The notes beneath the pieces are model-generated. The model was not told where the DNA came from, made no database searches, and saw only the letters and a program-made list of their open reading frames with translations. The position numbers and the translations under genes were made by a program. A stretch of DNA of 51,739 nucleotides, filler included, from Dimargaris cristalligena (Eukaryota): NCBI GenBank assembly GCA_003614675.1. It is 3 parts of 3 records of this genome, joined end to end, with 100 filler letters (N's around TTAATTAATTAA, not from the genome) between each part and the next. Parts side by side here need not be neighbours in the genome. Positions count along the whole stretch, not along the records: positions 1 to 17,200 come from ML002816.1; 2 more parts are not named here. The stretch is one strand, 5' to 3'. Positions 2,530 to 49,436 of this stretch are shown here, piece after piece (position 1 is the first letter of the stretch; the number at the start of each line of letters is the position of its first letter).

Positions 2530-4419
2530 CTAGGCCTGGGCGGCCGACGACTCCGCAATGAAGGCATCGTGGAGCGCATCCAAGCGGGCCACAATCAACT
2601 CCTCAATTTCCGCCGGAGGGTTACGGGTTAGTTCGGCATCCGTCAGGGTAATATCGAACTGGTCCGTCTTAGTGATCACCGTCACCGTGCGTTTACGCGT
2701 CGTGAGCAGATTGCCAATCACCACCTGATGTCCGTAGCGCATCAGGGCGAATTTGGCCTTGGAAATCAGCAGATTGGGGTCCGTTTCCAACTGCCCATTG
2801 GACCGGCGCAGTGTGTGTGTGTGTGTGTGGTTCAAACAATGGATGGGAAGGGACCCAATCCCTAGAGGGTTAGTTGATCAGATGGGTAGTAGATACACTG
2901 ATGGCTCTAAAATTCAGTCCCCCATTGAGGTGAGGCTGGGTCGGTTTTTTGAGGAGGGGGGTCAATTCCACAATATATATGCCCGGATTCGCCATGACAA
3001 TTAATTAAAAATCAACAATATCGGGGATATATGGCAGTACTTACTTTAAACGAGACAATAAAGCTGGTGGGTGCCCATTGATGCACCAGCGGGCGCAGGA
3101 ATTTGGGCACTTGGTCCATTGTAAGAGTCAACCCGCCATCCGCCGACTGAATCTTATGTTCAACCTGCAGTAGGTTGGCATCGGGTAAGCATGATCCGAA
3201 TAGAGTGAATACAAGTATAAAGCGGTTGTGGAGGTTGGTTAGTCGACTGTTTTTTTGTTCTTTTTCATTAGATACCGAGTAGAAGTTGGGACAAGGCGAC
3301 GGAAAAGAAATATATTTGACACTCAACAATGACCTGCATTATTCATAATACCAAATCGGTTCCCCTCTATTCAAACAATATCGGTATAGCACCAATGGTA
3401 TATACCGCTTGCAAGCATCTATAAATAGATGTACGATTACACTTACCATGCGCTGGGCCGGAATAAAGAAATCGCTGACGGCGGCCGCCAGGTAATACAT
3501 GGCCCGGGGTCCCAACACCGAGAGAGCTTTCGCCGCAGCGCGGAGATGGAATAGATAGTCCGTGAGGGTAGTAAACGTGATCATGAGAAGGGAGTTGCTC
3601 GCAATAGCCTATTATTATTATTATTATTATTATTTGACCCGGGGTATGCCATACCAAGTGGTACCGTGGTTATGGGTTAGTCAATACACTAAGCCTATCC
3701 GTTCCTAGCTTATCGAAATACCCGTCCATTGCATTCCGATTCAGTTCCCTATTCATTATCTATATGTATCGCATGTTCTCTCCACAAATATATCTATATA
3801 TATTCAAAGGCCCATAATCAACTTGGCAACTTACCTCCTGGTACCGCGCCAGTTGGGTGGCCATTTCCGCGGCATATTCCGGTTTGACTCGAGGCGGCTG
3901 CCCCGGTTCGGCACCCGGCACCAGATAATCCAACACACTCCCCTTGGCCTGGCCGAAATGGCGTGCAAACGGCTGCAAACTCCGTTCCCGGTACAGGAAA
4001 ATAACGGCATATCCCCGGACCAGGAAAAACTCCGCCGAAGCCGACCCCCGTGTTCCCGCACTGAAATTATCAATGAACCGAACGGTATTGTTTTCCAGAG
4101 GTACAATGGTACCACCACTGGTAACGAGCACGACCTTACGAGGAGAGGTGGTGGTGGTCCGTTGGGGTTGGGTTGGGGTTGGGGCTTGGTGATGGGCAAT
4201 AAAGGCGGCCAGTTGACGTTCGTGCTCGACTAGATGGGGAGGCGGTGGGTTGGACGTGAAATAGGTGTCGGGATCGATTTGTTCAAAGGGGTGACTTTCG
4301 AGCACGGAACTACAGCTGGTCGACGAGTCGGGGCGTTGGGAGGCTGGGTCCACATGCGTGTATAGGGACTGGGCGGAAGCATTAGCTTCGCTGGATCCCA
4401 GAGAGGACGGGGGGTCCAT
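2530..4419 (-). CDS. CAB2: Phosphopantothenate-cysteine ligase (CoA biosynthesis, CAB2/PPCS), 4 exons: 4419-3835, 3608-3447, 3164-3045, 2790-2530; about 375 aa
   Basis: Motifs [64 protein letters not shown] and HQVVIGNLL. All three introns are GTAAGT...YAG, phase 0. Confidence 0.93.
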
Positions 4420-5887
4420 GGTGACTGGGTATGTATGGCACAAGTGGGTGTGGGGGATGGAGGACAAGTTGTGGTGTGGGGTTGAGTTGAGTTGTGGAAT
4501 GTGAGAGTTATGAGGGTTGGGTCAGTAATATAAGACGGGTTTCGAATGGAGGTGTGGAATGGAGAGTTATACAAGAAGGCCAGCGGGGTTTTCGTTGGGG
4601 GAGGGGGGGGTTCGAAAAGAGGTCGCTTGTCCTCAGGCGAGTTTCGTCTAAAGGGTAATAAATGCTACAAGGGGTACGGCCAACGGCAGAGACTGAGACT
4701 GACCCTCCCTTGGTTATCTATTTAGAGAGCCCACCATGTGACAGCAATGTAGCAGTGCAGTACAGTACAATGTAGATAGTAGTTGATCACTCCCTCACCT
4801 CCTCCTTTCGTCTAGCTCCCCCTCCTCTTTGCTCAGATAAACTGAGTCTAACTGTCCCCCACCCCCCTCACATTGAAGGAGGCACCAAAACCAAGTCACA
4901 ATTAATTGATCCAATCAGTTTAGCGTAGAGCTATGATAACCCCACTTGTTCCTATTAGTATTGCCCAGATCCATGCAATTTGACCTTGTTAATAACAACA
5001 CTAACCGCTTCCTGCCCTCAAATTACGGTAGTGCACTCAATCAGTCTCAGTTAATACATCAATAATAGGCCCCGCATGATCGAATGTTATAGCGTAATAG
5101 TCGGGATTGTCCATTCCGTAAATTCCGCAGATGTGCGTTCTACCGCAGACTACAGTTATTTATATAGGCTGGTTTCCGGATTGGATAAATAACAGAGTCT
5201 CTCGATTGGGAGTCCCTAATAATATGAACCTTATTGATTTGGGTTTATCGAAAGTAACCCAAGCCCCCCCCCAATATATATATATATATATATATATCCT
5301 AGGCGGGGAAATGCTATGCAGGGATGGTGAGAGTATAAAGTAGAACGGCGAACAGAATGTCCTATTTTTATATAATATATAATCTAGTGAAACGACCCAC
5401 TATGCGATAAAGCGCGCACAGGGCATCGAAGGAGAAAGGGCGAGGAGGGTTGGTTAGCTGATAAATGGGGCAACAGACATGTCACGGAGCTAAAGTATTG
5501 GAGTTATTCACCTTGAAAAAAAAGAATATATATTTAATAGCCAGCCTAGTAAAAAGGGTCCGGTGAACCTTAACCCTCGCGCGACCAAGATAATTGACCC
5601 GATGCGCTGGTACACCAGTCCCCTCCAACTATGCCAGACTAAGGAAGCCCCACACTAACCCCGGCTTCTAATATCGCTAAATTGGAACAATATTCCATAA
5701 AAATAAACATTGCTGCAGACAGAGTTGGGAGAGGAGGGGAGGATGGAGTATTTAAATATCATTGGGAGGCTAGACTCAAAAAATTAAAAATGAAATAAAC
5801 AAACAAAAAAATATTGTAAACTTCCGATCATGAATGAAGAAACCCCAATTGATCTAACCATATATATATATATATATATATACTTAT

Positions 5888-7261
5888 TTAAAGCGAGTTG
5901 ATGCGGGGGAAAAGAGCGACATTACCGACACCCACGGCAGTCGGCTTAGCCTTGAGCAGAGTTTCGGCGGCCGCCTGGATGTTCTGGGCGGACACAGCGT
6001 CGAGGGTGGCCAAAGTTTCCTGGAGGGAAGTGGTGGAAGGGGAACCGTTGAAGACCAAGTTCTGGAGTTCAGCGGCCTGACCAGCGCTAGTTTCGGCGGC
6101 CAAAGCGGCGGCGGCCTTAGCCTGGTTCACGGCGCGCTGGAGTTGTTCCGCGGCGGGGGCCTGGCTAGCGACTTCCTGGAGGGCATGGGCAGCGGCTTGG
6201 GCGGCCTGGGCCACATCGGCGCCGGTGGGGGCCCGCACCTGGATACCGAACAGACCGGCGTCGCTGTAGGTGAACTGGAAGGGGTGCAGTTGCACGCCAC
6301 CGTGGCCCAAGGCCGCCGCAGCTTGGGCGAGGCGGGACTGACCGGTTCCCCACTTGACGTAACGCGAACCCCCCAGGAGGTGACCGAGGATCCGGCTCGC
6401 GGCTACCCCGCTGGGGTTATCCAGACCGGCGGACGGGTAGGCCATCGCGTATTGGGCATCACCCCCGGCGGGACCGTCGAAGAGAGCCTCGCCTCCGGTA
6501 TACTGGGAAGCGCTGGTATCGGCCAAAGTCGAAGTAGAGGCCGGAGTAGTGATCCGTTCAGTCAACAATTCGTGACCCAATTCGGCAAGTTGGGCGTGAT
6601 CCACATTCACACCAACCAGACCTAAACGGGTGGGCTGGAACACCTGCTGGGCGAAATCGATCAGTTTCTTCTGGGTCACCTGGTTGTTAGCGCGGGCGTA
6701 TAGGGAGTTACCCAACCCTTGGCTATGGAACGCCACGCGGTGGAGCTCGTCGAACAGACGGATTTCACTGTCGGCTTGGGCGGCCAGGGTTTCGGCCTGG
6801 ATGATGGGCTGGGCATCGAGGAATTCGTAGTCGGTGTACCGGGTTTCCAGAGCCACGCTAGCCAGCAGTTGGGTGAAGTACGGGACGTCGGCCGCCAGGC
6901 AACGCACGGTGTAAATCTGGTAGTCCCGGTCCAGCGTAGCGGTCAATTGGCCCCCTTGCAGTTCCGTTTCCCGGATGGTGCGGAAAGCGGTACGGCTCTG
7001 GGTGTTCTTAAAAGCGAAATGCTTCAGGAAGTGGGCCACCCCGCTGTTGGCTGCGGTTTCGTAACGGGAGCCGCCCTTGACCACCAGGGACAGGGTGGAA
7101 GCGGAGGAAGAGGAAGAAGAAGCAGTGCCCGCGGCGGTGGCAATACGCAGACCTTGGCCGACCTGGCTCACCTGAAGGGGAGCGGAGGAGACGGCGGTGG
7201 CCAGGGAACGGCGGGCTTGGGAGGCGAGGGCCTTCTGGGGACGAATGGAAGCGCGGAGCAT
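5888..7261 (-). CDS. QCR2: Cytochrome bc1 complex core subunit 2 (M16 peptidase-like), single exon, 457 aa
   Basis: Arg/Ser/Ala-rich mitochondrial presequence. GGSRYE...GVAHFLKHFAFKNTQSRTAFRTIRETELQGG lacks HxxEH, so it is catalytically inactive. Also GLGNSLY, YSDAGLFG and C-terminal KPTAVGVGNV. Confidence 0.9.
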   Translation of the reverse strand: MLRASIRPQKALASQARRSLATAVSSAPLQVSQVGQGLRIATAAGTASSSSSSASTLSLVVKGGSRYETAANSGVAHFLKHFAFKNTQSRTAFRTIRETELQGGQLTATLDRDYQIYTVRCLAADVPYFTQLLASVALETRYTDYEFLDAQPIIQAETLAAQADSEIRLFDELHRVAFHSQGLGNSLYARANNQVTQKKLIDFAQQVFQPTRLGLVGVNVDHAQLAELGHELLTERITTPASTSTLADTSASQYTGGEALFDGPAGGDAQYAMAYPSAGLDNPSGVAASRILGHLLGGSRYVKWGTGQSRLAQAAAALGHGGVQLHPFQFTYSDAGLFGIQVRAPTGADVAQAAQAAAHALQEVASQAPAAEQLQRAVNQAKAAAALAAETSAGQAAELQNLVFNGSPSTTSLQETLATLDAVSAQNIQAAAETLLKAKPTAVGVGNVALFPRINSL

Positions 7262-10200: not shown

Positions 10201-10433
10201 AGGGTAATTTCACCAACCGGACACAGCAATCACTCAAGCTCAACCCAAATATTATAGGGTATACTTCATGAGGCGGTAATAATTAAATGAGAACACAGAG
10301 ACAGTGGGCCCCTTTTTGTCATGGAAATTAAACATCCGGGTGAAAAGATACCCTGGAACAAGCTGAGCCAACTGATCCGTAAATTCAAGCACAACCTCGC
10401 CCACTAACTACCACCCAAACTGCCCAGACCAAA

Positions 10434-12465
10434 TTATAGGATTTGACAGACGCCCCGCTTCTTCTTCTTCTTGTCCTTCTTTGTGGTGGTGTTGCGGTGG
10501 TTTACTCCCTGGGGATCGCGGCTGGCTCGGATCAGTCGTACTACCGTGTAGAAGGCCTTTTCCACGTTAACACACGTCTTGGCCGACGATTCAACAAACT
10601 CGCAACTGAGGCGCTTGGCCATGGCGAGACCCTCCTCCCGAGAGACCTCTCGTTCGTGGACCTTGTCGCATTTGTTACCGACCAGCATTAATGGCACGTT
10701 GTCGGTATCCTTAACTCGGGTGATCTGGTCGCGGAATCGCTGGACACGTTCAAAGGTGGACCGGGCGGCAATGGAATAGACTAACAAGAACCCTTCGCCA
10801 TCCCTATTGAACCAGATTATAATCAAGGGGAGTGATGCGGTATATTGATAAACGCCAAAGGGAGGGGGGGTTAGTGACTGTTACGGAGCTCTAGTGACAG
10901 GGTCATAATATATTGGCTGTATTATCTCACACCCACTCTCTGAGGGTTACTCAAACAGATGGGTAGGTGGCTAAATTCCCACAGGCCAGCATAGTATATA
11001 TTGAACAGGCCATCAAACACCATTATTGAAACAGGGCAACCTACCGAATCCATTGGTCACGAAGCGCGGTGTATTCCTCTAAACAATAGTACATGGTATG
11101 GGTAATAATAATAATAATAATGTTGCGATACATATTAGTGATTGGCTGGGCAAATTGAAGAATTAAACGGCGTCAAATAGAGGATACCATATTATATAGT
11201 ACAATAGAGCTATAATACCAACCTTGGCCGGCGGTATCCAATACTTCTAGCACACAGGGTTGTTCATCGATTACAACCTGTTTGCGGTAGGAATCCTCAA
11301 TGGTCGGATCGTAGGTCTATAGCATGGTTGGGTAGGTAGTGTAATAAGATAATAAAATTGAAAATACTTAGGAAGTCGGTTTAGCACTATTTCAGCAGGG
11401 AAATCTAGGGGAGTCCCCTTCGGTTTCGAGAGAAATGATCTTCTAACACGGGGAAGGTTGGTAAGTACCCGATAAATTAAAGTTGGAAAAGTGGCATTTG
11501 ACGACCACGGAAAGCTCCATTACTTACCTCTGAATTATGTGATTAAATTGGTTTTTGGAAGAAACAAATGGTGGTGAATGGGGCATACATGACATTAGTG
11601 TTCCACATCCATAAGCAAATGCCAATTACCAGCCATCTGAATATTCCACAAAGGGGAAGTGGGGGAAATAAGCTGACAGTCCTTAATCACACGTAAACGG
11701 GATTTCCGGATGGGTTCGGGTTGTATTTACAACCGGCTCTTCACATTGGTCGGTTGGAGGGTGCTGATTGCTGGGAGGATCAGCCCTAATTGATCGTCCT
11801 GGCGAGAAGCTCGTAGGTTGCCATGATAATGATAATAGGCGAAGTTGGAAGAAAATGGGGGAACGGTATAGGGACGGACAAGTACTTACCTACGAAATGG
11901 TTCAAACAAAGCTAACGGGGCGTAAGGAGGAGTGATAGCGACAGCCGTTTGGGACATAATAATAATGGTGGTTAATAGATAAATGTGGTCTTATGGGCCA
12001 AAGCCATATTGAAGGCGGACGGTATACGGGAGTTTTGGCCCCTCCCCCTTCTTCACCTGGGAAGGCGGAGAAGTGTATACACCGAGAGGGGTAAATCTAT
12101 AGAGACTAAGCCATTAAAAGGTTGGTGCAGTCGATTAATTATGTGATGCGTACCTGGATAGTGAGGGCGGTCTGCGTTAGCGCAAGGATGAGTAGGCAAT
12201 AGACAAACAAAATCAGGAATAATATTCCGTTAATAAGCGGAAAGGGACGATATGTGTAGGGAGGACAGTGAGCAATATTTGGATAAATCGGCCGTATTGG
12301 TGGTGGCGCCCTATATGCATAAACGAAGTTGCATATATGCTCTATATGTATCCCAAGCCTAAGGGGTGAATATGAGGTATGCCCCAAGCCCGACCCTGGC
12401 GTCTGGGGGAAACTTACTTTACCAACACCACCATCACCGAGAACGACTAATTTATACAGTCTCAT
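10434..12465 (-). CDS. RAS2: Ras GTPase of the fungal Ras2/RasB type, 7 exons: 12465-12418, 12171-12154, 11911-11890, 11529-11528, 11316-11223, 11078-11045, 10803-10434; 195 aa
   Basis: Spliced product [43 protein letters not shown]...DTAGQEEY...NKCD...ESSAK..., ending in polybasic KKDKKKKKR and CAAX box CQIL. Exon lengths 48+18+22+2+94+34+370 = 588 nt, and all introns are GT-AG. Confidence 0.93.
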
Positions 12466-15400
12466 TCTAAAAGTACGAGAGGGTGGGAGAGAATGCGACG
12501 GGCGACAATTATTGGAGAGGCGCGACTTGGCTGAACTCGGGCGGTTAGAGAGGGAGAAAGAGAGAGGGAGAAAATGACGGTGAAACGGATGAGGTAGGAG
12601 GAAAGAAGGGGAATGGAAGGTAAGCAACGCCAAGAAGGCTGGGTGGGGCTCGCGTAGAGTAGGAGGGGTGGTGAATCAAGGTGTGGAGTAAGGGGCAATA
12701 GTCTTCTTATACGGGAGAGTGATTCAACTAGGTTGAGTTCGCTGAGTAAAAGATGGGGGAACTGGGGCGCGCCAGCAAAGTGTAAGATAGATATAGTAAG
12801 AGAAAGAGAGAAAGAGTGAGAAGGAGAGGAGAGAGGGATCTCAACTACCGAACAAGAAGAGGCTGGGTGGGCTGGGCTGGGCGAGAAAGGATGAGCCAAA
12901 AAGAGGGCGGACAAATAAGTGAAGCGGTGGGCGAAATACAGAGAAACAAAGTACCAGGCCTGTTGTAGCAAGTGTTACTTGGGCAACACGGAGAGGAAAG
13001 TGCTATGTATGTATAATAAATTCAATTTCTATAATAAAGAGATGAGAGAACACAATACCACACCCCTTTGCTTTGGGTAAGAAGAATGGACTTGGTTTGG
13101 TAAGGAATGGTATTCAACGGGAGAAAGAAGAGAGCAGGGAGACAGTGAGGACGGTGGGTATATATAAGTATGTGCGTAGAATGAATGGAGAAATGGTATG
13201 GCCGATGTATGTGCACTGGCATTTAATAATTTGGGCTTTATCCGCAACAGCGGCTAAGGCGTGCGGGAGGACTTTGGCTGGGCTCCGCATATTCTGTAGC
13301 TATTATTGACACCGGCCACGCTGGGGAATAAGTACTACTACTCTAGAATAGAATAGAATATATATAGGATTTCTATCCACAGTGGGTGGGAACCTGGCAC
13401 TACACATTCGGCAGCCTGTCAAAACGATGCCCCAGATTGGGTGGGTTTCGAGACTATGATAGGTCCAAGACTACCAAGTAAAAGTATGTTGGACACTCCC
13501 AGCAGCGGATGCTACCCAATAAAGGCACGATCATCATCCCCATTGCTTTATGCTGGTGGAAAGAAGAGAAGGAAGGGCATGGCGCTGTTCCACTCCTTCT
13601 CCTCTTCCTAGTTAGATGCGATTTATCCTGCACACCATTCATCATTCAGTATAAACCATTCGGGGAGTTGCACATGCCTCTTGTCATGGCAGATAGCATC
13701 TCTCTCCGATTCTAGTTAGTTAGCCCACCACCACCCGGTATCCCTCTAAAAAAAGGAAATGCACCGCTAATGTGATTGATTGCCCCCATTAATTGCTGCC
13801 ATTCGTTGGTTAGATTGAATCCCCTCCCCCTCCCGTTGGAGGAATACCGCCACTATTATTAGTACCGTTGTGGACAAATAATCACTTGGACCTTAGTCGG
13901 TCGGTAGCCATAATACTTACATCATACATAGGAGGCAGACAGACAGACGACTGCTTATCCAGAATGCAGGGTAGAGGCTCTGGACTTGAGGAAGTGCACT
14001 TATCCCCTAGAAGAGGCCTAGATGGCCTGATGGTTCTCAGTAGACTGCGAATCCCTTGCCCAAGCCCAAATACCGCAAATGTATAGTCCGTTTAGGACTA
14101 TTATACTACTCCCTCAACCGGAAACCCCAACTTCTGTGAAGGGGGGGAGGGTAGAGCTAACCAATACAGTCGGCTAAATTTATAAAATGTTATTTCCCTA
14201 TTCTATACTTGGGAATCCAGGGGGTGTGGCTTGGTATAAATTGGCCCACCTGACCACTGTGGGATGGAGTGATAGAGGGCGGCGAGGGGGGATGTAAGCA
14301 GCAGAGCAGTGGTAATTGGTAGCCGACTGGCATTAAAAAGCGCGAGGTGTATACTTACTAACTTTGTAAACTATTCAGTATCAGATGGGTATCCTCCTGC
14401 CCTCCGCCTTATCCTACACTTATCCTACACTTGGCCCATTTTGAACATATATGTATGTATCCAAATTTAGCCACGCTTCAATAATATGGGTGGGCCATTT
14501 CGTTTGGGTAATCGGCCCAATACACGGATTGGACTTTCTATTCGACAACCCTATCCCCGGATTCGATATTTTAACCCCCTATTATTTGCCGTAAATTAGT
14601 ATAAACTAGTGATTATATAAGCTACACGCCCAACGAAACATTAGAATATAGGTGCAGACTTGGCAAATAGTAATTACCGGCGTGTAATTAAGCCACGAAG
14701 GCCCCCATTCACTACCCGCCACCTAGGATAATAGTACTCCTAACATATGCGACATCGCTTTATATAAGTCAGTACATGAATAGGTCCAACAATAACCGAC
14801 TAATTTACAAGAGTAGGCTGAAATCTATAGTAACTCTAATATAAGTCACTGTAGCAAATTCGGAGATATTGAAACCAGACGCGGAAATCATCCGGCCCTT
14901 TCGCATACATTTAGCCTACTGAATAAAGCTTCCTAAAACCATAGCTGACCGTCCAATGATTATTCTAAAGTAGATCATATCATGAGGAGGCGTCATAAAA
15001 GAACCTCTTCACATTATATTTGCCATTTCCCCATCGACTGATCGTCTTTTAATCTTCACTGTGATGCAGCCAGGTACTGCTGACATTTAGAATTTACACC
15101 AAACTCATGGCCAGGCAATTGCTTCAAAAATGAGATTACTTGCAAGTAGCTTGCTGACTCTCGCACCCGAAACAGCCCCAGCCTTCGTAGAAATACCCCG
15201 TGATACACCACCACACGCAAATGCAAAGTCAACAATAGTTTGCAGTATAATCCGAATTCTCTTTATCGTAGGCCTGTTAGCCACTACTTCAACTATGGGG
15301 TAAACGTGATCTTGGAATTACCTTTGATCATACTCTAGTAGTAACCAATGCTACACGGAATACAAGGACTAGGTATTCAAACATGGTGGCTTTGACAATA

Positions 15401-18417: not shown

Positions 18418-20201
18418 TCTCTGTACTCTCCTTCCTGGTCCAACTACACAAACCACTGTCCAGATTCCTTCTCCCCAATCTAACCTAAACGGGGGGACCT
18501 TCTTTCTATATGCCATCTGATCCTTATTAATCTAATGCCTCCTTGACGCGGCTGGAATCATCGACCCATACTGCACTGAACTGACGTCCCCAATTCCGTT
18601 CTATCGCCAGTGCCCTTTTTTCACACTCCCGTGACGCACAGGAACCGGTGGCGTTATTTACACTCCCATTGATTGATCCCTTTTGTTTCTCATCCTCCCA
18701 CTTCGGGGTTGGTCTGTTGCAGCTATCGGGTAAATCAGCCCGCATATAGAACAGCCACTGAGCCGGCAAGTACCTGCACGGTGCCTGGTTTATTCTCCCA
18801 CAGCCTCTCCTCCCATCCACACTGCCAATTTTCAAGGGTGCTGCTACTTTATTACAAATCACACACAAGTATACCTATCTATCTATTCTGCCGTTGCTGG
18901 TCACAACTATATTAACAGGGGCCTCCCGTCTCATCCATTGGTTTTAAATTTACAACCTCTCCTATATTCTGCATATCCCCCCCTCTTCCTCCTCCTTTCC
19001 TGGCCTATCTCCTGATTTTTACTGGACATCGCTGCGCCTTCTCCCTCTCTCACCACGCACTTTCATTGAGCCTGGCCTATCGACTTTGGCTGTTGCTCAG
19101 AACCACTCAACTATTCGCTCTACAGCAACGTGCTTAATGTTGATTGTTTTAGGCGGTGCCTTGTTTTACCTCTCATTTTAGATTACTTTAACTGCTACTT
19201 CTTCACTCAATTGTTGGGGAGACGGACGACTCGAGTAAAAGGTTCCTTCTTCCACCTGCGCACTACTTACTCTTTATACGTTTTCCTCTCTTTTCGCCCT
19301 GCATTTGTCCTTTCCAGTGCACGTGTCCATTTGCCGTGTTAGTTCGGGCCATTTCAAGATAATATCACACACACACACACCCCATCTGTACAGCTTAGTT
19401 GTGATGAGAATTCCTTGGTGAATATATATATATATCTTGGCCCTTATTTCTCTTCTACTACTTACTTGCTGACCCTTCGTCTGGTGTCTTATCCTCTTCC
19501 TCCTGTTTTGCTGGGGGTATTTTCTCATCCTCCCCTTTCTGCCTTCTGCTATTACAAGGTGACACTCTCCTTGCCTGATCTATATTTATCAGGTCAAGTC
19601 TCTCTCGTCTACCCTGGTCTTTGGTGCACAAGCGAAACCTTCATACTTTCCTTCTTTGGTTGCATATTCCTCAGTGTTTCTTCCCTCCTTAACCTTCATA
19701 ACATCCCCGCTCTTCATATCGCCCTCGTTTGAGTAACCTGTCCTTTTTTTTACCCGACCCATCCTATCCATTGTGGTCGCCTGATAGCTCTTGTACCCTT
19801 TACTCAACCCTACTTGCCCCATTGCTGTGGGTGACTCGATCCCCCTACTCTTCTTTCCTCTCTGTCCCCTCCGGTTGACATTTTACCCCCATTCCGTAGT
19901 CTATCTTAGCGGCATATTCGCTCGCTACTTTGATTCCCCTACCCCAAGCCCACCTCCACCAACCCATTGTCAACCCCTCCCATTTGCACGTGTCAAGAAC
20001 CTTGGTCGTGAATTCAATCTTCGGATTGTACAAGCCAAATCGTCGAGAGCCCAGTCCGGAAACACCTGTCGATTTATCGCTCCAAAATTCTAACCGGGCA
20101 TATAGGTTCCGTTTCCCCCACCCCGGGCCGTTTACCCCACCGAGAATACCGCCCTTTTCCTCATTTCACCACCACTACCCCCCCTCCCTACCCCGTTGGG
20201 C

Positions 20202-22055
20202 ATGGCCACTTACTCGTTCCCCTCGCAGCCGAAGCCCCGGACTGCCGAAACCGATCTTGCCCCGGTTACTCACCTTGGCTATACCATGGGTTCTGGCTAC
20301 GGTGGCTCTAACTCCTCGATTATCTTTAGCGGCCTCACTTCGGCTACCGCTCCTACCACCCGCTGTTCGTCTCCAGTTCTGGCGGACGACGACGAGCGTC
20401 TCTCTGATTGCTCCGAATATCCCTCCAACCAGCCTCTATTCTTGAACTTTACCTCTGACTTGGCCCCCTTCAACGCTGCCAAGAAGCAAAAGAGCCGTAA
20501 AAGCAACGTCTATAAAGTAAGTGGGGTCAATATCCTGAACCGTAATAGCGTGGAAAGTCGGACAGTTATGGAGCGCATCCAGCGTCGGCGGGAGAACCAC
20601 AATTTCGTGGAACGTCGTCGGCGAGACAATATCAATTACACCATTACTGAACTGGCCGGGGTAATCCCTGCTGCTCACCAGGATGGTGCCAAGCTGAACA
20701 AGGGCAGTGTCCTACGCATGGCGGTGGACTATATCCGGGAACTTCAGGAGGAAAACCAATCCTTGCGCGGGCGCTTGGGCCTGTCTCCTATCCAGATCCC
20801 ATCGGGCCAACCTCCTGCTGGTTTCGTCATTGGCGCCCCCGCTTCCGGGTCCGGTCTGACCAGCGCCCACCGGGACTCCTCGTCGCAGCTCCACAGCAAT
20901 TACTCATCTCGCCGTAACTCCCTGGTGGCCGCCCCCCTTACGTCTTCGACGGATTCGTCCACAGCGAACACACCTTCGGCGGCTCGTAATAGTAATGCCG
21001 GGCCCTCCCCTCATCCTCCGCCTTCCTTCATCAACCCACACAATGGCTTTGGTATAGGCGGCGGGGATCACACCCAACCCCCTACCTCATTACCACTATA
21101 CCATGTTCCCTCCACAATGGGCTTCAACCCCAATCTCCCGGGTTTGATGGTGAATGGGGCAACCCACTCGCCCGGACCTAGTGGGGCCAATATGCGTTCG
21201 ACCCCTGGTTCCCCGCATTATTACAGCAGCAGCAGCAATCCGCCGTCGCAGCCCCATACACCAACAGCCCACGACCGCGGCTCCACCTCGGTCCATTATC
21301 AGCCCTACCAGATTCCTCGGCAGCCTCTGAGTAGCGGCCGCGGGGTCGGAGTTGAGCACGGTGGAAACCACCCGTCTTTCCCCGAGATTATGGATACCAG
21401 AATGCGGGAGCTCGCTCCGGTTCCTACCCCGCTGCCCTCCATTCCCAATACGCCCGCCCCGTCTGTCCCTAATTCACCTGGTATCTCCCCGAATCGACCC
21501 ATTGAAGATCTACACCTTCCTTCGCTTAACGAACGGCTTTATAATGGCGGGCAACCGCCGGCTACCGTCAGCAGTGGTATTTCAATAGGAAACTGCCATT
21601 CGGGTGGTGTCGGTGCCCCTCTGCCTCCGCCGCTATTAGGAGCACTGAACCCTATGGGAGGTGGAGGAGGCATGCTCATGTCGACAGTTACCAGCTCCAA
21701 CGGTGGCAGCACCGCCATTCCCCCTCCATACCTAAGCCAGCCTATTCCCTATGTGCAGGTGAAGAGCGAGTTCCCCAACTCCCCACATCCTTACCATCAT
21801 CACCAGCATCCGCAGCAGTCTGGGGGAGGAGGAGGAGGCACACCGTTGCCATCCCTAATTGCCACCCTTTCGAATGCGGCCAAAATTCCCAGTCACATAC
21901 CGCCAGCGGCAGCCGCCCCCGCTACTCATTCACAACCACTCATGACTGGTTACCACGGCCCCGGTTCTTCCACGCCAGCCTCCCCTGCCACTCCGACGGT
22001 TATCCACGGTTCCCATTCCAGCCATGCCGCCGAACGGTTTCATCCGAGGTTTTGA
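20202..22055 (+). CDS. bHLH(-Zip) transcription factor, class B E-box binder (MiT-TFE/Rtg3/Cbf1-like), with a long Pro/Ser/Gly/His-rich tail; about 617 aa
   Basis: RRRENHNFVERRRRDNINYTITELAGVIP...KLNKGSVLRMAVDYIRELQEENQSLR, with the H5-E9-R13 basic signature. First ATG at 20202 (the ORF track starts at a TTG). Confidence 0.88.
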   Translation: MATYSFPSQPKPRTAETDLAPVTHLGYTMGSGYGGSNSSIIFSGLTSATAPTTRCSSPVLADDDERLSDCSEYPSNQPLFLNFTSDLAPFNAAKKQKSRKSNVYKVSGVNILNRNSVESRTVMERIQRRRENHNFVERRRRDNINYTITELAGVIPAAHQDGAKLNKGSVLRMAVDYIRELQEENQSLRGRLGLSPIQIPSGQPPAGFVIGAPASGSGLTSAHRDSSSQLHSNYSSRRNSLVAAPLTSSTDSSTANTPSAARNSNAGPSPHPPPSFINPHNGFGIGGGDHTQPPTSLPLYHVPSTMGFNPNLPGLMVNGATHSPGPSGANMRSTPGSPHYYSSSSNPPSQPHTPTAHDRGSTSVHYQPYQIPRQPLSSGRGVGVEHGGNHPSFPEIMDTRMRELAPVPTPLPSIPNTPAPSVPNSPGISPNRPIEDLHLPSLNERLYNGGQPPATVSSGISIGNCHSGGVGAPLPPPLLGALNPMGGGGGMLMSTVTSSNGGSTAIPPPYLSQPIPYVQVKSEFPNSPHPYHHHQHPQQSGGGGGGTPLPSLIATLSNAAKIPSHIPPAAAAPATHSQPLMTGYHGPGSSTPASPATPTVIHGSHSSHAAERFHPRF

Positions 22056-27863: not shown

Positions 27864-29500
27864 ATGGCCACCACCTTCGTGGGCCGCAGCACCCTTTTAC
27901 CATGGCGTGCCCCGATCTTGTCCATGGGCCGTTCATTGACCACCACTGCTGTAACCCAGGGCCAGCGCTTGCCACGTACCACCAGTTTGAAGTACAGCCA
28001 ACCCAAAGACGCCTACCTGCTATCGGCCAAAGTGACCAAATTCATTAAACTCAACAAACTCGACGATGCCATTGCCCTAACCATGAACTCACCCGGCCGG
28101 CTTCAGTCACCGGTGGTTTGGAATTTACTGATATTCGCCTGTTCCGAAAAGGGCGCGCTGAATCGGGCGTTAAAATTATACAATCAGGTAAGTAGAAACC
28201 GGGGTATAATAATGATAATACTCTATGCTGGACCGGTTTGGCTGATGAGTGTACATTGCCAAGGTGTTTTTTGTTTTTGTATTGGTACGTATAACCCCCA
28301 CTGAAACTCAATTTACTGGGTAGAACTCCTCCCCCTCTGACCCTATTTGTGGGTTTTTGGGAATGCCTGTATCGCCCTAATTAATCCCGCTTTCTACTAT
28401 ACGGTCTGCTTTAATTTGCCCACTAGATCAAAAAACGGGGTCTTCGACCAGATTCCCATACCTACACTGCCCTCCTCCGCTGTTGCGCCCAGTCGCATTC
28501 CCCCCGTGCAGTAGCCGAGGCCGATAAAGTGTACGAGTACCTTCAAACTAACCAGACACCCAGTCTCATTCATTCAAACGCCATGCTACGGGTGTACGCC
28601 CGCCATGGTCGCACAGACGAGATGATTGAGTTTTACCGTACGATGCCCCCCTCGGGTAATCAAGCGCCCGACGAAGTGACTTACACAATTACGATGCAGG
28701 CCATGGCCCAACTCCAACCCCAGCCCCAATCATCGGCCGTTGAACCTACCGAAGCAGCGGGGTCTAATGCTGAGTCGAAAGGTAATGATAATATTAACGG
28801 TACTGGCGGTGATGCGCTGAATCCGGCAGTGCCAAACCGTAATCCCGGGCGCCCGGGATTCGCCGCTCCAGGGAAGCTCGCCCCGGATGTGGCGTTCGCC
28901 CGCATTCACCCCGTTTGGTTAGACCTGGTCATGGACCAGCAGAAACGGCTCATTATGAATCAGCACAATACGGCCCAAACCCCCCTAATTCGACCCGACC
29001 GGCACTTGGTGCACTTCTTCCTGCATATCGCGAGTCGGGTTCGCACGCCCGAGCACATTAGCCAGGCATTAACCGCAGTGGAACTTATGTTCGGGTTCCA
29101 GTACCGGCCCGATCGCCCGATTACGGACCAGGCCGGCCCGGCACTTGTTACTGGGTCATCATCATCATCATCCTCACCACCACCATCGTCATCGGAGTCG
29201 GAAGTGGTCGGTATCGCCCCAACGGCAGCCGAATCGTCGGTCCCGCAGGGCCTCTTCGCCGCCGGGTACGACTCCACCTGTCTGGATGGTAACATGTTGA
29301 ACCGGATACTGACCCTGTGCCTGAGCGGTCAGGAATACCGACGGGGATTGGCCTATGCCCACCAAACGATGGCTACCTTCCAGCCCACCATTGAGCTGGG
29401 TCTGTCCAATTTTTTCATGCTTACGGAACTCTTCCGTAAACAAACGGCCGAGGAAATTGGTCTGAATAAGCGGCCCCGGAGAGAAAAACGGGCCTCGTAA
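27864..29500 (+). CDS. Mitochondrial pentatricopeptide-repeat (PPR) protein, 2 exons: 27864-28187, 28427-29500; about 465 aa
   Basis: Presequence-like N-terminus. PPR motifs VVWNLLIFACSEKGALNRALKLYNQ|IKKRGLRPD, SHTYTALLRCCA, LIHSNAMLRVYARHGRTDEMIEFYRTM and PDEVTYTITMQAMA. The intron is GTAAGT...CTAG, phase 0. Confidence 0.85.
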
Positions 29501-34715: not shown

Positions 34716-35800
34716 CTTGAGGATATGGGCGATGGACCCATCGTGAGTACCTGCATTATTGGTATGGAATGTCCGATAGATTAGGTGTCACGGTAGTCGA
34801 CGTTAAATCACATTCAAAAAACATCGATCCCGCGTAGGTATATACCAGCAATCCAGCAAATCGATAAAAACCGATTATCAAAGCGGGTGGGGGAGGAGAG
34901 GGGGGGGCAAACATCCGGTTCCTTATTATTATTATTTAGACTATGAACTGACTTACATTCGGCATCAACGATGACCTTGTCGTAAAGTTGGGTTCCGCAT
35001 TGGGTATTGCCAAATCGAAGTAATCGGGGTGCATAGAAAGGTTTAAGGGAAACGGGATCTTCCCTTGAAGAGGACTGTCCCCTTTCAGTTGGGGCATCCG
35101 ATAGGGGCTGTGGCAGCGAGGAGGGGATCCGCGCTAATTCCTTTGGGTTATCCCAGTTGGCCGGCGGGGCTGGACGATCAAAAGAGGTTCCATCGTGGGC
35201 AAACAGTCGTACATTAAAATGCCGGTATTTTTTCAACAACGACCGGCAGGTGGCCAGTCGTAATGGGGAAATATCCACGCCGGTGACGGTGCCCTGGCCC
35301 CTCCTGGGCTTCTTCAACTCGGGTTCCCCGTCGGAATCGTCACCGTCGCCGACCCCGGTTAACAAGTCCGCAACCATACACAGTTTGGCCCCGGGTGCAC
35401 AGCATATATCCAGGACATGGTCGTCGGGTTCCAAGTCAAGGGCCAAAACGGCCAGCCCTGACGTGACGTCGATACCGTATAGCTGGCCACTTTGGTAGCC
35501 CGGGCATTGCGACAGCCGGATAGGGCCTGGGGAAGGGGGGAGCCGCCAGAAATCGGGTACCCCTGGAACGGGTTCCGCGGACACTCCCAAATGGAGGTGA
35601 ATGTCAGCCAAGAGTTGCTCTCGCTCAGAGGACGAAAGCCGGCGTCCTAGGCGGAAATAACGGGGAAGGTCGAGGCATTGATCGTAAAGCGCAATGGGAA
35701 TGCCATTGTCGGCTAGGAATTTGACAAAGCTGGGGGGGAAGCGGTCGGCCTTGCGAGAGGCTACGGAAGTCATGGCCACTGTTGATTGATGGGGCAGCAT
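34716..35800 (-). CDS. NOL1/NOP2/Sun (RsmB/NSUN) family SAM-dependent RNA m5C methyltransferase, partial: exons 35800-34957 and 34750-34716; the 3' end probably lies in the gap at 34483-34582
   Basis: YGIDVTSGLAVLALDLEPDDHVLDICCAPGAK (motif I), VTGVDIS, and YDKVIVDAEC|THDGSIAHILK (motif IV spliced across GTAAGT...GCAG). The next donor is gtaagc at 34715. Confidence 0.85.
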
Positions 35801-39785: not shown

Positions 39786-41259
39786 ATGGTTTCTAAAACT
39801 AGGTCATTCACCTTGCCGGACGGCGTCCTTGACTTTATTGCGGGAAGTGTGGCCGGTGCAGGACAAACCGCCGTGGGCCAGCCATTCGACACTGTCAAGG
39901 TATGCTACTTTACTCAGACCCTCTAGAAAACGCCGACTCCCCCCTTACTCCTACCTAGTACCTCAAGGTACTCAAACCTTCCCCCCCTTCCTCGCTTGGC
40001 CTTTCGTACCTGGCCCTATACCTGCCGGGGTATGCTTAACTACGCCATTGTCTAACCGAGTAAGTCAATGCCGCTCACACACACTACTGTCAATTAGACG
40101 CGACTTCAAATTGAAGGGCAGTCGAGCCGGTTCAAAGGCCCCTTAGACTGTGTTTTACAAACCATTCGGAAAGAAGGTGTACTCAGTCTCTATAAAGGTA
40201 CGTCTCACTATCAATGGATCTGGTGGGTGGTTACTTCGTTCACTTTGCGAAAAATAAATGTTGGTGTGCCTTTAATTAACCCTCAAACATGGGACGGCCA
40301 ATTGGCAATGTATGTGAATGGCTTTATATATGTTTTCTAGGAATGTTATCCCCGCTTCTCGGGATATCCGCTGTCAACGCCGTGTTGTTCGCCACCTATT
40401 CCCGACTTAAAGAACTTCAAAAGTCAAGCGCGTCCGATCAACTTAAGCTCTATCAAATTGCCCTGGCCGGGGGCGGTGCAGGTAGGACCGACCATTACTG
40501 AATTACACCGTTTTCTACGCGAGCCCAGTCACCATAAATATTGACCGGGGGCTCTTTAGGGCTCACCCTTGAATACCCAATCCAGCGACTGTTGCATACT
40601 AACCAGCACCCATCACTTGAATCGAAATCACATCAATTTTATTGGCACCGCCCTGGGGGGGGGGGTTACCAGGGGCTGCCAATAGTATCATTATCTCACC
40701 CGTGGAGCTACTCAAGATCCGCCTCCAAGGGCAGTACGGCTCCAGAAGCTCGAACATCCCTACTGGTACCATATCCACACCCATCCAACCATATTATCGA
40801 GGCCCATCCCAGCTCGCCCGGGACTTGTGTCGCTCCCAAGGTCTCCGCCGCGGCCTTTTTCGGGGGTTTTGGGCTACTCTATTCCGCGAAATTCCGGCTA
40901 ATATGGGATTTTATGCAGGGTTCGAAGCAGCCAAGCGCTGGTTGGCGAACGATCAGTACGATGCTAACTCGTTACCCGTGAGCCGCTTGTTACTAGCGGG
41001 GGCCTGCGGGGGTATCAGCTATTGGACCGTATGCTACCCGATGGATATCATCAAATCGCGGGTTCAGTTCTCCACTAGCCCGTTGCGGCGGCCGCTAAGT
41101 TACATTGCCGATACGGCCCGACAGATCTACCGGGAAGGGGGACTCCGGGCGTTTACTAGGGGCTTAACCCCCACCCTTCTCCGAAGTTTGCCTGCCGCGG
41201 CGACGACCTTCTCTTTGTATGAGCTTTCCTCTAATTATTTAAAACAGGGGTTTTCGTAG
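39786..41259 (+). CDS. Mitochondrial carrier (SLC25; carnitine/basic amino acid carrier group, Ymc1/Crc1-like), 4 exons: 39786-39899, 40098-40197, 40341-40481, 40673-41259; 313 aa
   Basis: Three PxD/ExxKxR signatures: QPFDTVK|TRLQ, SPVELLKIRLQ and YPMDIIKSRVQ. Contact motifs REIP and RSLP. Exons sum to 942 nt and introns are GT-AG. Confidence 0.9.
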
Positions 41260-48440: not shown

Positions 48441-49436
48441 TCAATTGGTAATTATCGTATCTCCTTGGCTGCCGGTGGTTGGGTTATTGGACGGCGAAGC
48501 CGAGGCCGAGGTCACCCGGGAGGCAGGGGAGGATCGGGCGGATGTCAGGGGCCCTCCTCGGGTGGCGGTCGTGCGATTACTACCTGGGCTGCCCGCGGCA
48601 CTTGACCTAGTGCTGTTACTCCGACTGCTACTGCCGCTGCTTGTTCGGGCGCTGCTTGTAGAACGCGGGGGTTCAGACGGATTGGAAAGGGGTCGAGCGG
48701 GGGGTTCGGCTAGCTGCGGAAGCTGGTACTCGGGGTGCCGTGCTACGAGACTCATGTAATACTGCTGTAATACCTCAAAAGGGGCGGTGACCCTCCATCG
48801 TAAATAATTGAGTAATTCAATTTCGAGGCTATTCATTTCCTGGATACTGACTCCCCCCACCCGGGCGTAGTGAGTATTGGTACAATAATAGTCGCAAATG
48901 GCCTTGGCCGAAATGGTGACTGCTGTAATAAGGAAGCGGTGTACGGTAAGGGATGAAATGTGGAACACTGGCATAGTACCTGGGGTGGAGTCATCCGCAG
49001 GCCGAACGGCCGGGTGGCCGTCGTCGTCCGTAGACCCGGTCTCGCCAATTGGTCGAGGGGGATCCGGCAGGGGAGGCGCCGATGTGGACGCCCAGTCAAT
49101 ATACACAAGAATAAGCAGGAGGCACGAGTTTTCTAGCCGAGTGTACCGCACAATCCGAGTCAAGTAATCGACTACCGAGATGTTGGGGGCAGTCCGTGAG
49201 TGAAACCGGGTGAGGTGATCTCGTTCAAATGGAATGCGATCATTAACGGCGATGAGTTGATCGAGCATACCGGCCACGAGCCGAATCAGATCAGTTGAAT
49301 TGATTTCGTAATAATTAGAAGCCAGGGTGCGTACGGGTGGGCCTAGGGTGGGTGGGACGGTTCGGGAGGAGGAGGTTGGCTGGGGTGGTGGGGGGTTGTC
49401 AGAGACCGACGATGCTGACCCATGTTTCGGAGGCAT
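48441..49436 (-). CDS. PHO80: Pho80/PREG-like (Pcl family) cyclin, single exon, 331 aa
   Basis: LTRFHSRTAPNISVVDYLTRIVRY, LLLILVYID, FHISSLTVHRFLITAVTISAKAICDYYCTNTHYARVGGVSIQEMNSLEIELL. Confidence 0.85.
   Translation of the reverse strand: MPPKHGSASSVSDNPPPPQPTSSSRTVPPTLGPPVRTLASNYYEINSTDLIRLVAGMLDQLIAVNDRIPFERDHLTRFHSRTAPNISVVDYLTRIVRYTRLENSCLLLILVYIDWASTSAPPLPDPPRPIGETGSTDDDGHPAVRPADDSTPGTMPVFHISSLTVHRFLITAVTISAKAICDYYCTNTHYARVGGVSIQEMNSLEIELLNYLRWRVTAPFEVLQQYYMSLVARHPEYQLPQLAEPPARPLSNPSEPPRSTSSARTSSGSSSRSNSTRSSAAGSPGSNRTTATRGGPLTSARSSPASRVTSASASPSNNPTTGSQGDTIITN

Follow-up and report, generated by a model that had tools for sequence, protein, structure and literature searches.

The minus strand of a 51,739-nucleotide (nt) stretch of DNA from the fungus Dimargaris cristalligena (GenBank assembly GCA_003614675.1; this whole stretch is called the window below) carries a Ras2-type gene whose fourth exon is predicted to be only 2 nt long. 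This micro-exon, an AG at 11529-11528, lies between two canonical introns and very probably supplies Glu30 of the segment HFVETYDP. Comparison with related loci indicates that the two bases and their splice sites, hereafter the island, are not an accident of one genome; the island seems to be an ancient feature of fungal Ras2 gene structure that is in constitutive use.

The gene occupies 12465-10434 and has seven exons, which when joined by script give a 588-nt coding sequence and a protein of 195 residues. All six introns have GT-AG ends. Its features are listed here in the order of transcription, with a slash marking exon-intron boundaries in this list and in the text.

12418 to 12465, minus strand: exon 1, 48 nt, with the ATG at 12465 and the donor gtaagt.
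12172 to 12417, minus strand: intron 1, 246 nt, GT-AG, phase 0, ending in gctaacgcag.
12154 to 12171, minus strand: exon 2, 18 nt, encoding TALTIQ; the related locus L005, described below, has an 18-nt TALTIQ exon with equal boundaries.
11912 to 12153, minus strand: intron 2, 242 nt, GT-AG, phase 0.
11890 to 11911, minus strand: exon 3, 22 nt, encoding LCLNHFV plus G, the first base of the Glu codon, and ending in phase 1.
11888 to 11893, minus strand: rival in-frame donor TTC/GTAGGT, lying 4 nt before the main donor; joined to the acceptor at 11317, it would give HF-TYD, with no Val or Glu.
11530 to 11889, minus strand: intron 3, 360 nt, with the donor GTAAGT at 11889-11884, the acceptor ttcag running to 11530 and the last 105 nt free of AG.
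11594 to 11598, minus strand: candidate branch site CTAAT, proposed from its motif, with the branch A at 11595, 65 nt from the 3' end of intron 3.
11528 to 11529, minus strand: predicted micro-exon (exon 4), AG, 2 nt, which with the G at 11890 would give GAG, the codon of Glu30.
11317 to 11527, minus strand: intron 4, 211 nt, with the donor GTAAGTA at 11527-11521 and the acceptor ctatag running to 11317.
11223 to 11316, minus strand: exon 5, 94 nt, encoding switch I and the DTAGQ motif and ending in G.
11079 to 11222, minus strand: intron 5, 144 nt, with the donor GTTGGT, phase 1; absent from L005 and from a second related locus, L003.
11045 to 11078, minus strand: exon 6, 34 nt, beginning in a split Glu codon and ending in a split Arg codon.
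10804 to 11044, minus strand: intron 6, 241 nt, with the donor GTAGGT, phase 2 in Arg73; its position is common to L005 and L003.
10434 to 10803, minus strand: exon 7, 370 nt including the TAA stop, encoding the remainder of the G domain, the polybasic tail and the CaaX box CQIL.

The case for the micro-exon begins with a conflict of phase. Exon 3 reads CTTTGTTTGAACCATTTCGTAG and is followed by gtaagt, so that it ends with HFV and a single G (CAT TTC GTA G/gtaagt) in phase 1. The next large exon opens at 11316 in phase 0 (ctatag/ACCTACGAT), after a gap of 573 nt. Direct joining of the G to ACC breaks the frame, which speaks against a zero-length recursive site; with the AG omitted, the scripted translation reaches a stop after HFVDLRSDH. 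Within the gap, the minus strand at 11532-11521 reads cag/AG/gtaagta, where an acceptor and a donor are separated by the two bases at 11529-11528. This is the only AG/NN/GY arrangement (Y, T or C) in the 573 nt; its insert yields GAG, and its donor matches GTAAGT at six of six positions. At the exon 5 acceptor, the bases preceding the AG are AT and a longer in-frame read-in meets the TAG of the acceptor itself, so that no other canonical route from the phase-1 end restores the frame. Direct reading of the minus strand and a scripted rebuild of the gene bore out the coordinates, strings and 588-nt coding sequence of the original prediction, together with its statements that no alternative AG lies near the acceptor and that the AG completes the Glu codon.

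The gene is the Ras2 of a Dimargaris-type fungus (Kickxellomycota). Its closest named relatives are records for RAS2 or small G-protein Ras2 carrying LCLNHFVETYDP, and the best matches in a search with exon 7 were from Dispira simplex (91%) and Dimargaris verticillata (88%). The translation contains all of the motifs known as G boxes (GxxxxGK[ST], switch, NKxD and SAK) as well as the C-terminal CaaX box CQIL. The window model is identical at 195 of 195 residues to P0126, a D. cristalligena record of the same length that belongs to the 90% cluster of a Dispira protein. Against the Pfam Ras profile (PF00071), P0126 scored 191.7 bits with a cut-off of 21.6, profile positions 1-161 of 162 aligning to residues 5-165 in a single stretch, and the best PDB relative aligned without a gap across HFVETYDP. 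The length of this segment is thus fixed in the family, and a loss of two residues here amounts to a deletion.

A search for related loci recovered the same arrangement elsewhere. We scanned metagenome contigs with the back-translated end of exon 3 plus its donor (CLNHFV-G/GTRNGT), a pattern that is unique in the window and gave no matches in 100 shuffles. Eight loci were obtained, four of them ras2-like (L001, L002, L003 and L005), and the island is present at both of those that span the gap, L003 and L005; L001 and L002 end 98 and 91 nt past the donor and reach no island. The conflict at L003 and L005 is the one seen in the window: TTG TGY TTA AAY CAY TTT GTT G/gt is followed, after 602 or 501 nt, respectively, by tag/ACA TAT GAY CC. 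Their islands read ttattacag/AG/gtaaga (L003) and cacaaacag/AG/gcaagt (L005). Although each of these gaps holds three AG/NN/GY candidates, Glu combined with a good donor comes from the island alone; the other two candidates in each gap would encode Ala or Val, and their donors match at 1-4 of six positions. In L005 the donor after the micro-exon (1369-1374) is GCAAGT, apparently opening a GC-AG intron, and the rest of it is the full consensus AAGT, as functional GC-AG donors typically keep the full consensus at their remaining positions. With the AG included, L005 encodes a complete Ras2 (573 nt, 190 residues, C-terminus CMIL), and L003 has an open frame from LCLNHFV to CTIL. The last exons of the two loci are 85-91% identical to Ras2 proteins of named Mortierellaceae (Mortierellomycota), and the L005 model is 92% identical to a Lobosporangium transversale protein. 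All three loci show what is expected of an ultra-short exon: the coding exons on either side disagree in phase, the conserved protein is recovered only with the insert, and a canonical acceptor and donor enclose that insert, the donor in L005 being GC.

The three gaps cannot be aligned except at the exon ends and share no other conserved block, so the island has been conserved against a diverged background. The motif AG-AR-GYAAG occurred in 39 of 20,000 dinucleotide-preserving shuffles of the window gap and in 28 and 72 of 20,000 for L003 and L005 (0.14-0.36% over the three loci), rates that are indicative and somewhat favourable because the motif was defined after the three loci had been seen; the 51.7-kb window contains three occurrences on its two strands, the island among them. 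The surrounding gene structure is shared as well. L005 has introns at five of the six window positions, with codon and phase identical, namely between Lys16 and Thr17, between Gln22 and Leu23, after the G of the Glu30 codon, between Glu30 and Thr31, and in phase 2 in Arg73; the extra introns are in Glu62 in the window and between Gly10 and Asp11 in L005. The L005 exons measure 30, 18, 18, 22, 2, 128 and 355 nt, and those of 18 nt (TALTIQ, 843-860) and 22 nt (LCLNHFV plus G, 939-960) have boundaries identical to their window counterparts, the boundaries of exon 3 being identical in L003 too. Four exons in the window gene, and five in L005, encode the first 30 codons of Ras2. Together, the five shared intron positions and the island argue that the 2-nt exon is an inherited structure and not a recent accident. 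The original prediction had proposed a check of orthologous introns, which uncovered the same phase conflict and island at both spanning loci; it had also treated the exon as a peculiarity of one gene, and here the evidence points instead to an old, widely shared gene structure.

The other four matches of the metagenome scan (L004, L006, L007 and L008) lack a Ras exon 5 and were discarded as chance matches. A string in L002, tttagAGtaaac, was rejected as an island: it has no GT, and the upstream intron would be just 19 nt. At approximately 480-1050 on the minus strand of L002, tblastn located a Rab-like GTPase gene (VVLIGDSGVGKSNLLSRF...) that adjoins the truncated ras2-like gene in the opposite orientation. 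A scan for YAG plus TYDPTIED returned 0 matches in genome contigs and 0 in viral contigs, and the scan for exon 3 plus donor returned three bacterial chance matches in genome contigs and 0 in viral contigs.

Public protein records were then compared at the same junction. Two protein searches and one cluster look-up supplied 185 proteins, of which 39 are without the region and two are other Ras types. Among the 144 Ras2-type homologues covering the site, 89 are intact and 55 are aberrant exactly before TYDPTIE, counts that refer to annotations and not to DNA, in a non-random sample whose second search favoured intact proteins. Of the 89 intact homologues, 88 have Glu. The aberrant forms, counted with two hand corrections that were checked, fall into the following groups.

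TALTIQ-TYD: 12 records.
HF-TYD: 11 records.
Other junk: 10 records.
GGVGK-TYD: 6 records.
HFVG plus junk, the G/GT donor being read through as Gly: 5 records.
Junk, then E-TYD: 5 records.
HFVE or HFVD plus junk: 4 records.
Start at TYD: 2 records.

Confronted with a donor in phase 1 and an acceptor in phase 0, gene predictors would be expected to give forms of this kind. The original prediction had further held that this Glu is conserved in fungal Ras2 proteins and that gene predictors miss such exons, and the 88 of 89 intact and 55 of 144 aberrant records agree with both. By name, the aberrant records belong to Mucorales, Glomeromycota, Mortierellomycota, Basidiobolus, Zoopagales, Kickxellales, Dimargaritales, chytrids and Piromyces, with Violaceomyces, Tilletia and Microbotryum among the Basidiomycota; for most of these taxa the higher-group placement is the one we presume. 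The named Ascomycota records are intact in ten of ten cases. Even the two public D. cristalligena records disagree: P0126 is intact at 195 residues, and P0121, of 187 residues and from the same 90% cluster, is identical at 187 of 187 aligned positions and is without LCLNHFVE. One public annotation, P0126, already has the correct protein. The region is missing too from the records of D. xerosporica and Tieghemiomyces parasiticus; for D. verticillata, the record consists of the last exon only.

Several individual records are informative about the junction itself. P0161 (Microbotryum lychnidis-dioicae) reads HFIE-VSML-TYDP, in which E-V-S is what read-through of AG/GTAAGT is expected to give; this hints that the island is also present in a basidiomycete. 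Full-length HFVETYD proteins occur on Joint Genome Institute (JGI) contigs of approximately 1 kb, too short for approximately 1.4 kb of introns. One of them, P0112, has 186 residues, comes from a contig of 1093 nt and matches the L005 model at 90% identity, which suggests that mature mRNAs of the P0112 lineage contain Val-Glu. Five mis-started records (P0004, P0006, P0113, P0114 and P0178) read junk-E-TYDP, with GAG seemingly contiguous with the TYD exon, and those lineages or paralogues may have a single phase-1 intron and no micro-exon. Such records hint at one of two histories, the gain of an intron after GAG that created the micro-exon or the loss of an intron that removed it. Separately, a record labelled as a fern (Adiantum nelumboides; the P0133/P0134 entry) is 89% identical to Ustilago-type Ras2 and possibly stems from fungal DNA within a plant assembly; P0134 is a fused Ras-Ras record of 310 residues with the source flag UNVERIFIED_CONTAM.

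Besides the after-the-fact definition of the motif, several points weigh against a 2-nt exon. We infer the presence of the AG in the mature mRNA from genomic sequence, and P0126, which agrees with it, may not be a transcript-based model. The loci spanning the gap number three, two of them from one phylum. At all three an AG also stands directly before ACC, and a non-canonical acceptor that supplied the two bases from 11318-11317 would yield an identical mRNA. Finally, a usable in-frame donor, TTC/GTAGGT, lies 4 nt upstream of the main one, and an HF-TYD isoform may exist as a by-product.

That upstream donor also gives rise to the serious rival, in which the main mRNA would end exon 3 at 11894, resume after the acceptor at 11317 and encode a 193-residue HF-TYD protein without Val29-Glu30, leaving the island unused. 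Such a junction is canonical GT-AG and in frame, the same GTAGGT serves as the donor of exon 6 in this gene, and the exact form is annotated in 11 homologues. These 11, however, come from scattered taxa with intact-annotated relatives and resemble predictor artefacts, and 89 homologues, including the proteins on transcript-sized contigs, retain Val/Ile/Leu-Glu. The donor itself compares poorly with its neighbour, for TAG/GTAAGTA is the full consensus and the exon side of TTC/GTAGGT is weak; in L003 and L005 the upstream GT is GTTGGT, next to phase-1 donors GTATGT and GTAGGT. HF-TYD would also delete two residues from a segment without length variation and would leave the conserved island unexplained. 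We consider it improbable that this is the main product.

The coincidence of an AG before ACC allows a second alternative, a single 571-nt intron (11889-11319) that begins with GT and ends with AT, with the AG of Glu taken from 11318-11317 and the island either incidental or a zero-length recursive site. Its mRNA would be identical to that containing the 2-nt exon, leaving RNA reads alone unable to separate the two models, and the AG is there in three of three loci. The intron ends that it implies are nevertheless unconserved (AT in the window, TT in L003 and AT in L005), and to our knowledge AT or TT ends correspond to no splice class. A perfectly canonical YAG acceptor would go unused, and there would be no reason for an AG-AG-GYAAG island in each of three gaps, for which the combined chance, as a product of the rates, is approximately 1e-8. 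Zero-length ratchet use of the island would in any case leave the frame problem in place, and we regard this alternative as highly improbable.

Scarcely credible is a gene in which the region is wholly skipped (TALTIQ-TYD or GGVGK-TYD), or which is decaying, so that a functional micro-exon is unnecessary: neither the 18 nt of exon 2 nor the 24 nt of exon 3 plus AG would shift the frame if omitted, both lengths being divisible by three, and 12 and six annotated homologues, including the same-species P0121, have these forms, but skipping would remove LCLNHFVE, a block found in 89 of 89 intact homologues that we take to contain the Phe stacking on the guanine base in Ras, the exon 3 boundaries are identical in L003 and L005 with a pattern match unique in the window, and every other exon is intact, with the CaaX end present.

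For the 2-nt exon, a splicing route can be proposed. The Glu30 codon would be split, with its G ending exon 3 and its AG forming a free-standing exon, and the next codon would open exon 5. Two ordinary GT-AG introns, one of 360 and one of 211 nt, would make up the rest of the 573-nt gap and would both be removed while the AG is kept, to give the 195-residue GTPase. The exon 3-AG-exon 5 junction in the mRNA would read TTYGTNGAGACN, and the dominant form in cDNA or junction reads would be GTAGAGACC, not HF-TYD. Spliceosomes cannot engage an acceptor and a donor at once when two bases separate them, so the introns would be removed one after the other under intron definition, and we infer that such stepwise removal is the most likely course. 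Were the downstream intron removed first, a normal acceptor, cag/AGACC, would be left for intron 3; were intron 3 removed first, the remaining ...GTAGAG/GTAAGTA would act as a normal donor, resembling a step of recursive splicing. The downstream intron is the shorter one at all three loci (211, 179 and 93 nt, versus 360, 421 and 406 nt upstream, in the window, L003 and L005, respectively). We have a slight, tentative preference for the downstream-first order. The first AG of CAGAG would have to be the acceptor, as use of the second would produce a zero-length ratchet and a broken frame.

A motif scan for YTRAY branch-site candidates gave, in the window, CTAAT 65 nt and TTAAT 13 nt from the end of intron 3 and none in intron 4. 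By the same scan, CTAAC lies 83 nt from the end of the upstream intron and 32 nt from the end of the downstream intron in L005, and L003 has none in the upstream intron and CTAAC 51 nt from the end of the downstream intron. Across the window Ras2 gene, YTRAY lies 56-67 nt from the acceptor in four of six introns, and AG-free zones of 48-137 nt occur in every one, again by motif scan. Branch sites in fungi normally lie approximately 10-40 nt from the acceptor, and the spacing here looks far. The AG-free zones upstream of the micro-exon (105, 125 and 143 nt) were considered as a special adaptation and rejected, given the 48-137 nt in the introns of the window gene and 291 nt in one L005 intron. 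An Rfam search of 10300-12700 with permissive filters gave 0 matches, and so nothing to suggest that an intronic snoRNA or another known RNA accounts for the length of the introns.

The original prediction went on to suggest that skipping of the micro-exon acts as an off switch for Ras. This is unsupported, since it restates the trivial consequence that skipping frameshifts the mRNA, and nothing supports regulated skipping. A broader version, in which the 2-nt exon is as old as the common ancestor of Kickxellomycota, Mortierellomycota and probably Basidiomycota, or older, and has been retained over hundreds of millions of years as a regulated, rate-limiting step, is in our view doubtful. Under that version, skipping would lead to a frameshifted, decay-prone mRNA and the upstream donor to HF-TYD, and the fidelity or speed of splicing would gate a core growth signal by determining how much active Ras2 is made.

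Elsewhere in the window, long open reading frames (ORFs) with Pfam matches lie at 5888-7261 (minus strand), 20196-22055 (plus), 40642-41259 (plus), 48441-49436 (minus), 3760-4467 (minus), 28529-29500 (plus) and 34814-35800 (minus). The matches are to peptidase M16, bHLH (in a GC-rich stretch, 0.58), mitochondrial carrier, PHO80-type cyclin, DFP, PPR and an RsmB/F-type methyltransferase fragment. Judged by ORF and Pfam, this is ordinary eukaryotic gene content.

A length of 2 nt is near the physical lower limit for an exon, and this one is predicted to encode part of the nucleotide-binding and effector loop of Ras2, a central signalling GTPase. Apparently common to long-separated fungal phyla, it offers a natural substrate for asking how an acceptor and a donor two bases apart are handled under intron definition. 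Comparative and structural work on fungal Ras2 inherits the associated annotation errors, namely loss of Val-Glu, skipping of the 22-nt exon and intron read-through, and annotation methods that allow for micro-exons could readily be tested on the Ras2 locus.

Several known systems invite comparison. In the stwintrons of filamentous fungi, one intron interrupts a splice signal of another and the two are removed consecutively. The Ras2 gap likewise contains two fungal introns that would be removed consecutively; it differs from a stwintron in that each intron has its own complete donor and acceptor, GT...AG, with 2 nt of exon between them. The ratchet points of Drosophila and vertebrates, as far as the accessible portions of the reports describe them (10.1101/006163, PMC8605326), similarly juxtapose (Y)AG/GTAAGT within a long non-coding interval whose removal takes two steps. 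No base of a ratchet point stays in the mRNA, whereas Ras2 needs two bases kept, and its intervals are just 360 and 211 nt.

Closer parallels are found in plants. According to the text available for PMC4674806, Arabidopsis APC11 contains a constitutive exon of 1 nt, for which stepwise, intron-definition and recursive-like removal was proposed, and the same paper cites a 9-nt exon of potato whose downstream intron is removed first. Micro-exons of 1 nt in plant APC11 and VPS55 are described in the accessible part of PMC8831610. As these texts present them, the plant exons share with the Ras2 exon an ultra-short length between canonical introns, a frame-essential role, absence from annotations and conservation over large distances, their conserved donor being GTRAGT (PMC4674806, PMC8831610). 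Unlike them, the Ras2 exon is 2 nt long, fungal, located in a Ras-family GTPase and known here from sequence, the plant exons having been proven by reverse-transcription PCR (RT-PCR) and RNA-seq.

Among fungi, the P450 genes CYP621A of Fusarium contain a 1-nt exon, described in the accessible text of PMC12940212 as the first for a fungal gene and found there through manual curation and comparison of orthologues; the paper also notes exons of 2-5 bp in Arabidopsis, Drosophila and human. As in Ras2, a phase conflict between conserved exons is solved by an AG/N/GT island within a conserved protein motif. As far as that text goes, the CYP621A exon is confined to a single genus and has read support from sequencing archives, whereas the Ras2 exon is 2 nt long and found in Kickxellomycota and at Mortierellomycota-like loci; the annotation artefacts suggest that its spread is much wider than that of the CYP621A exon. 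Our literature search, which covered main texts outside subscription journals, found no paper pairing Ras2 with a micro-exon and none on a fungal 2-nt exon. Exons of 1 nt are already published, and the Ras2 case is unusual among them for its apparent age and its location in a core GTPase.

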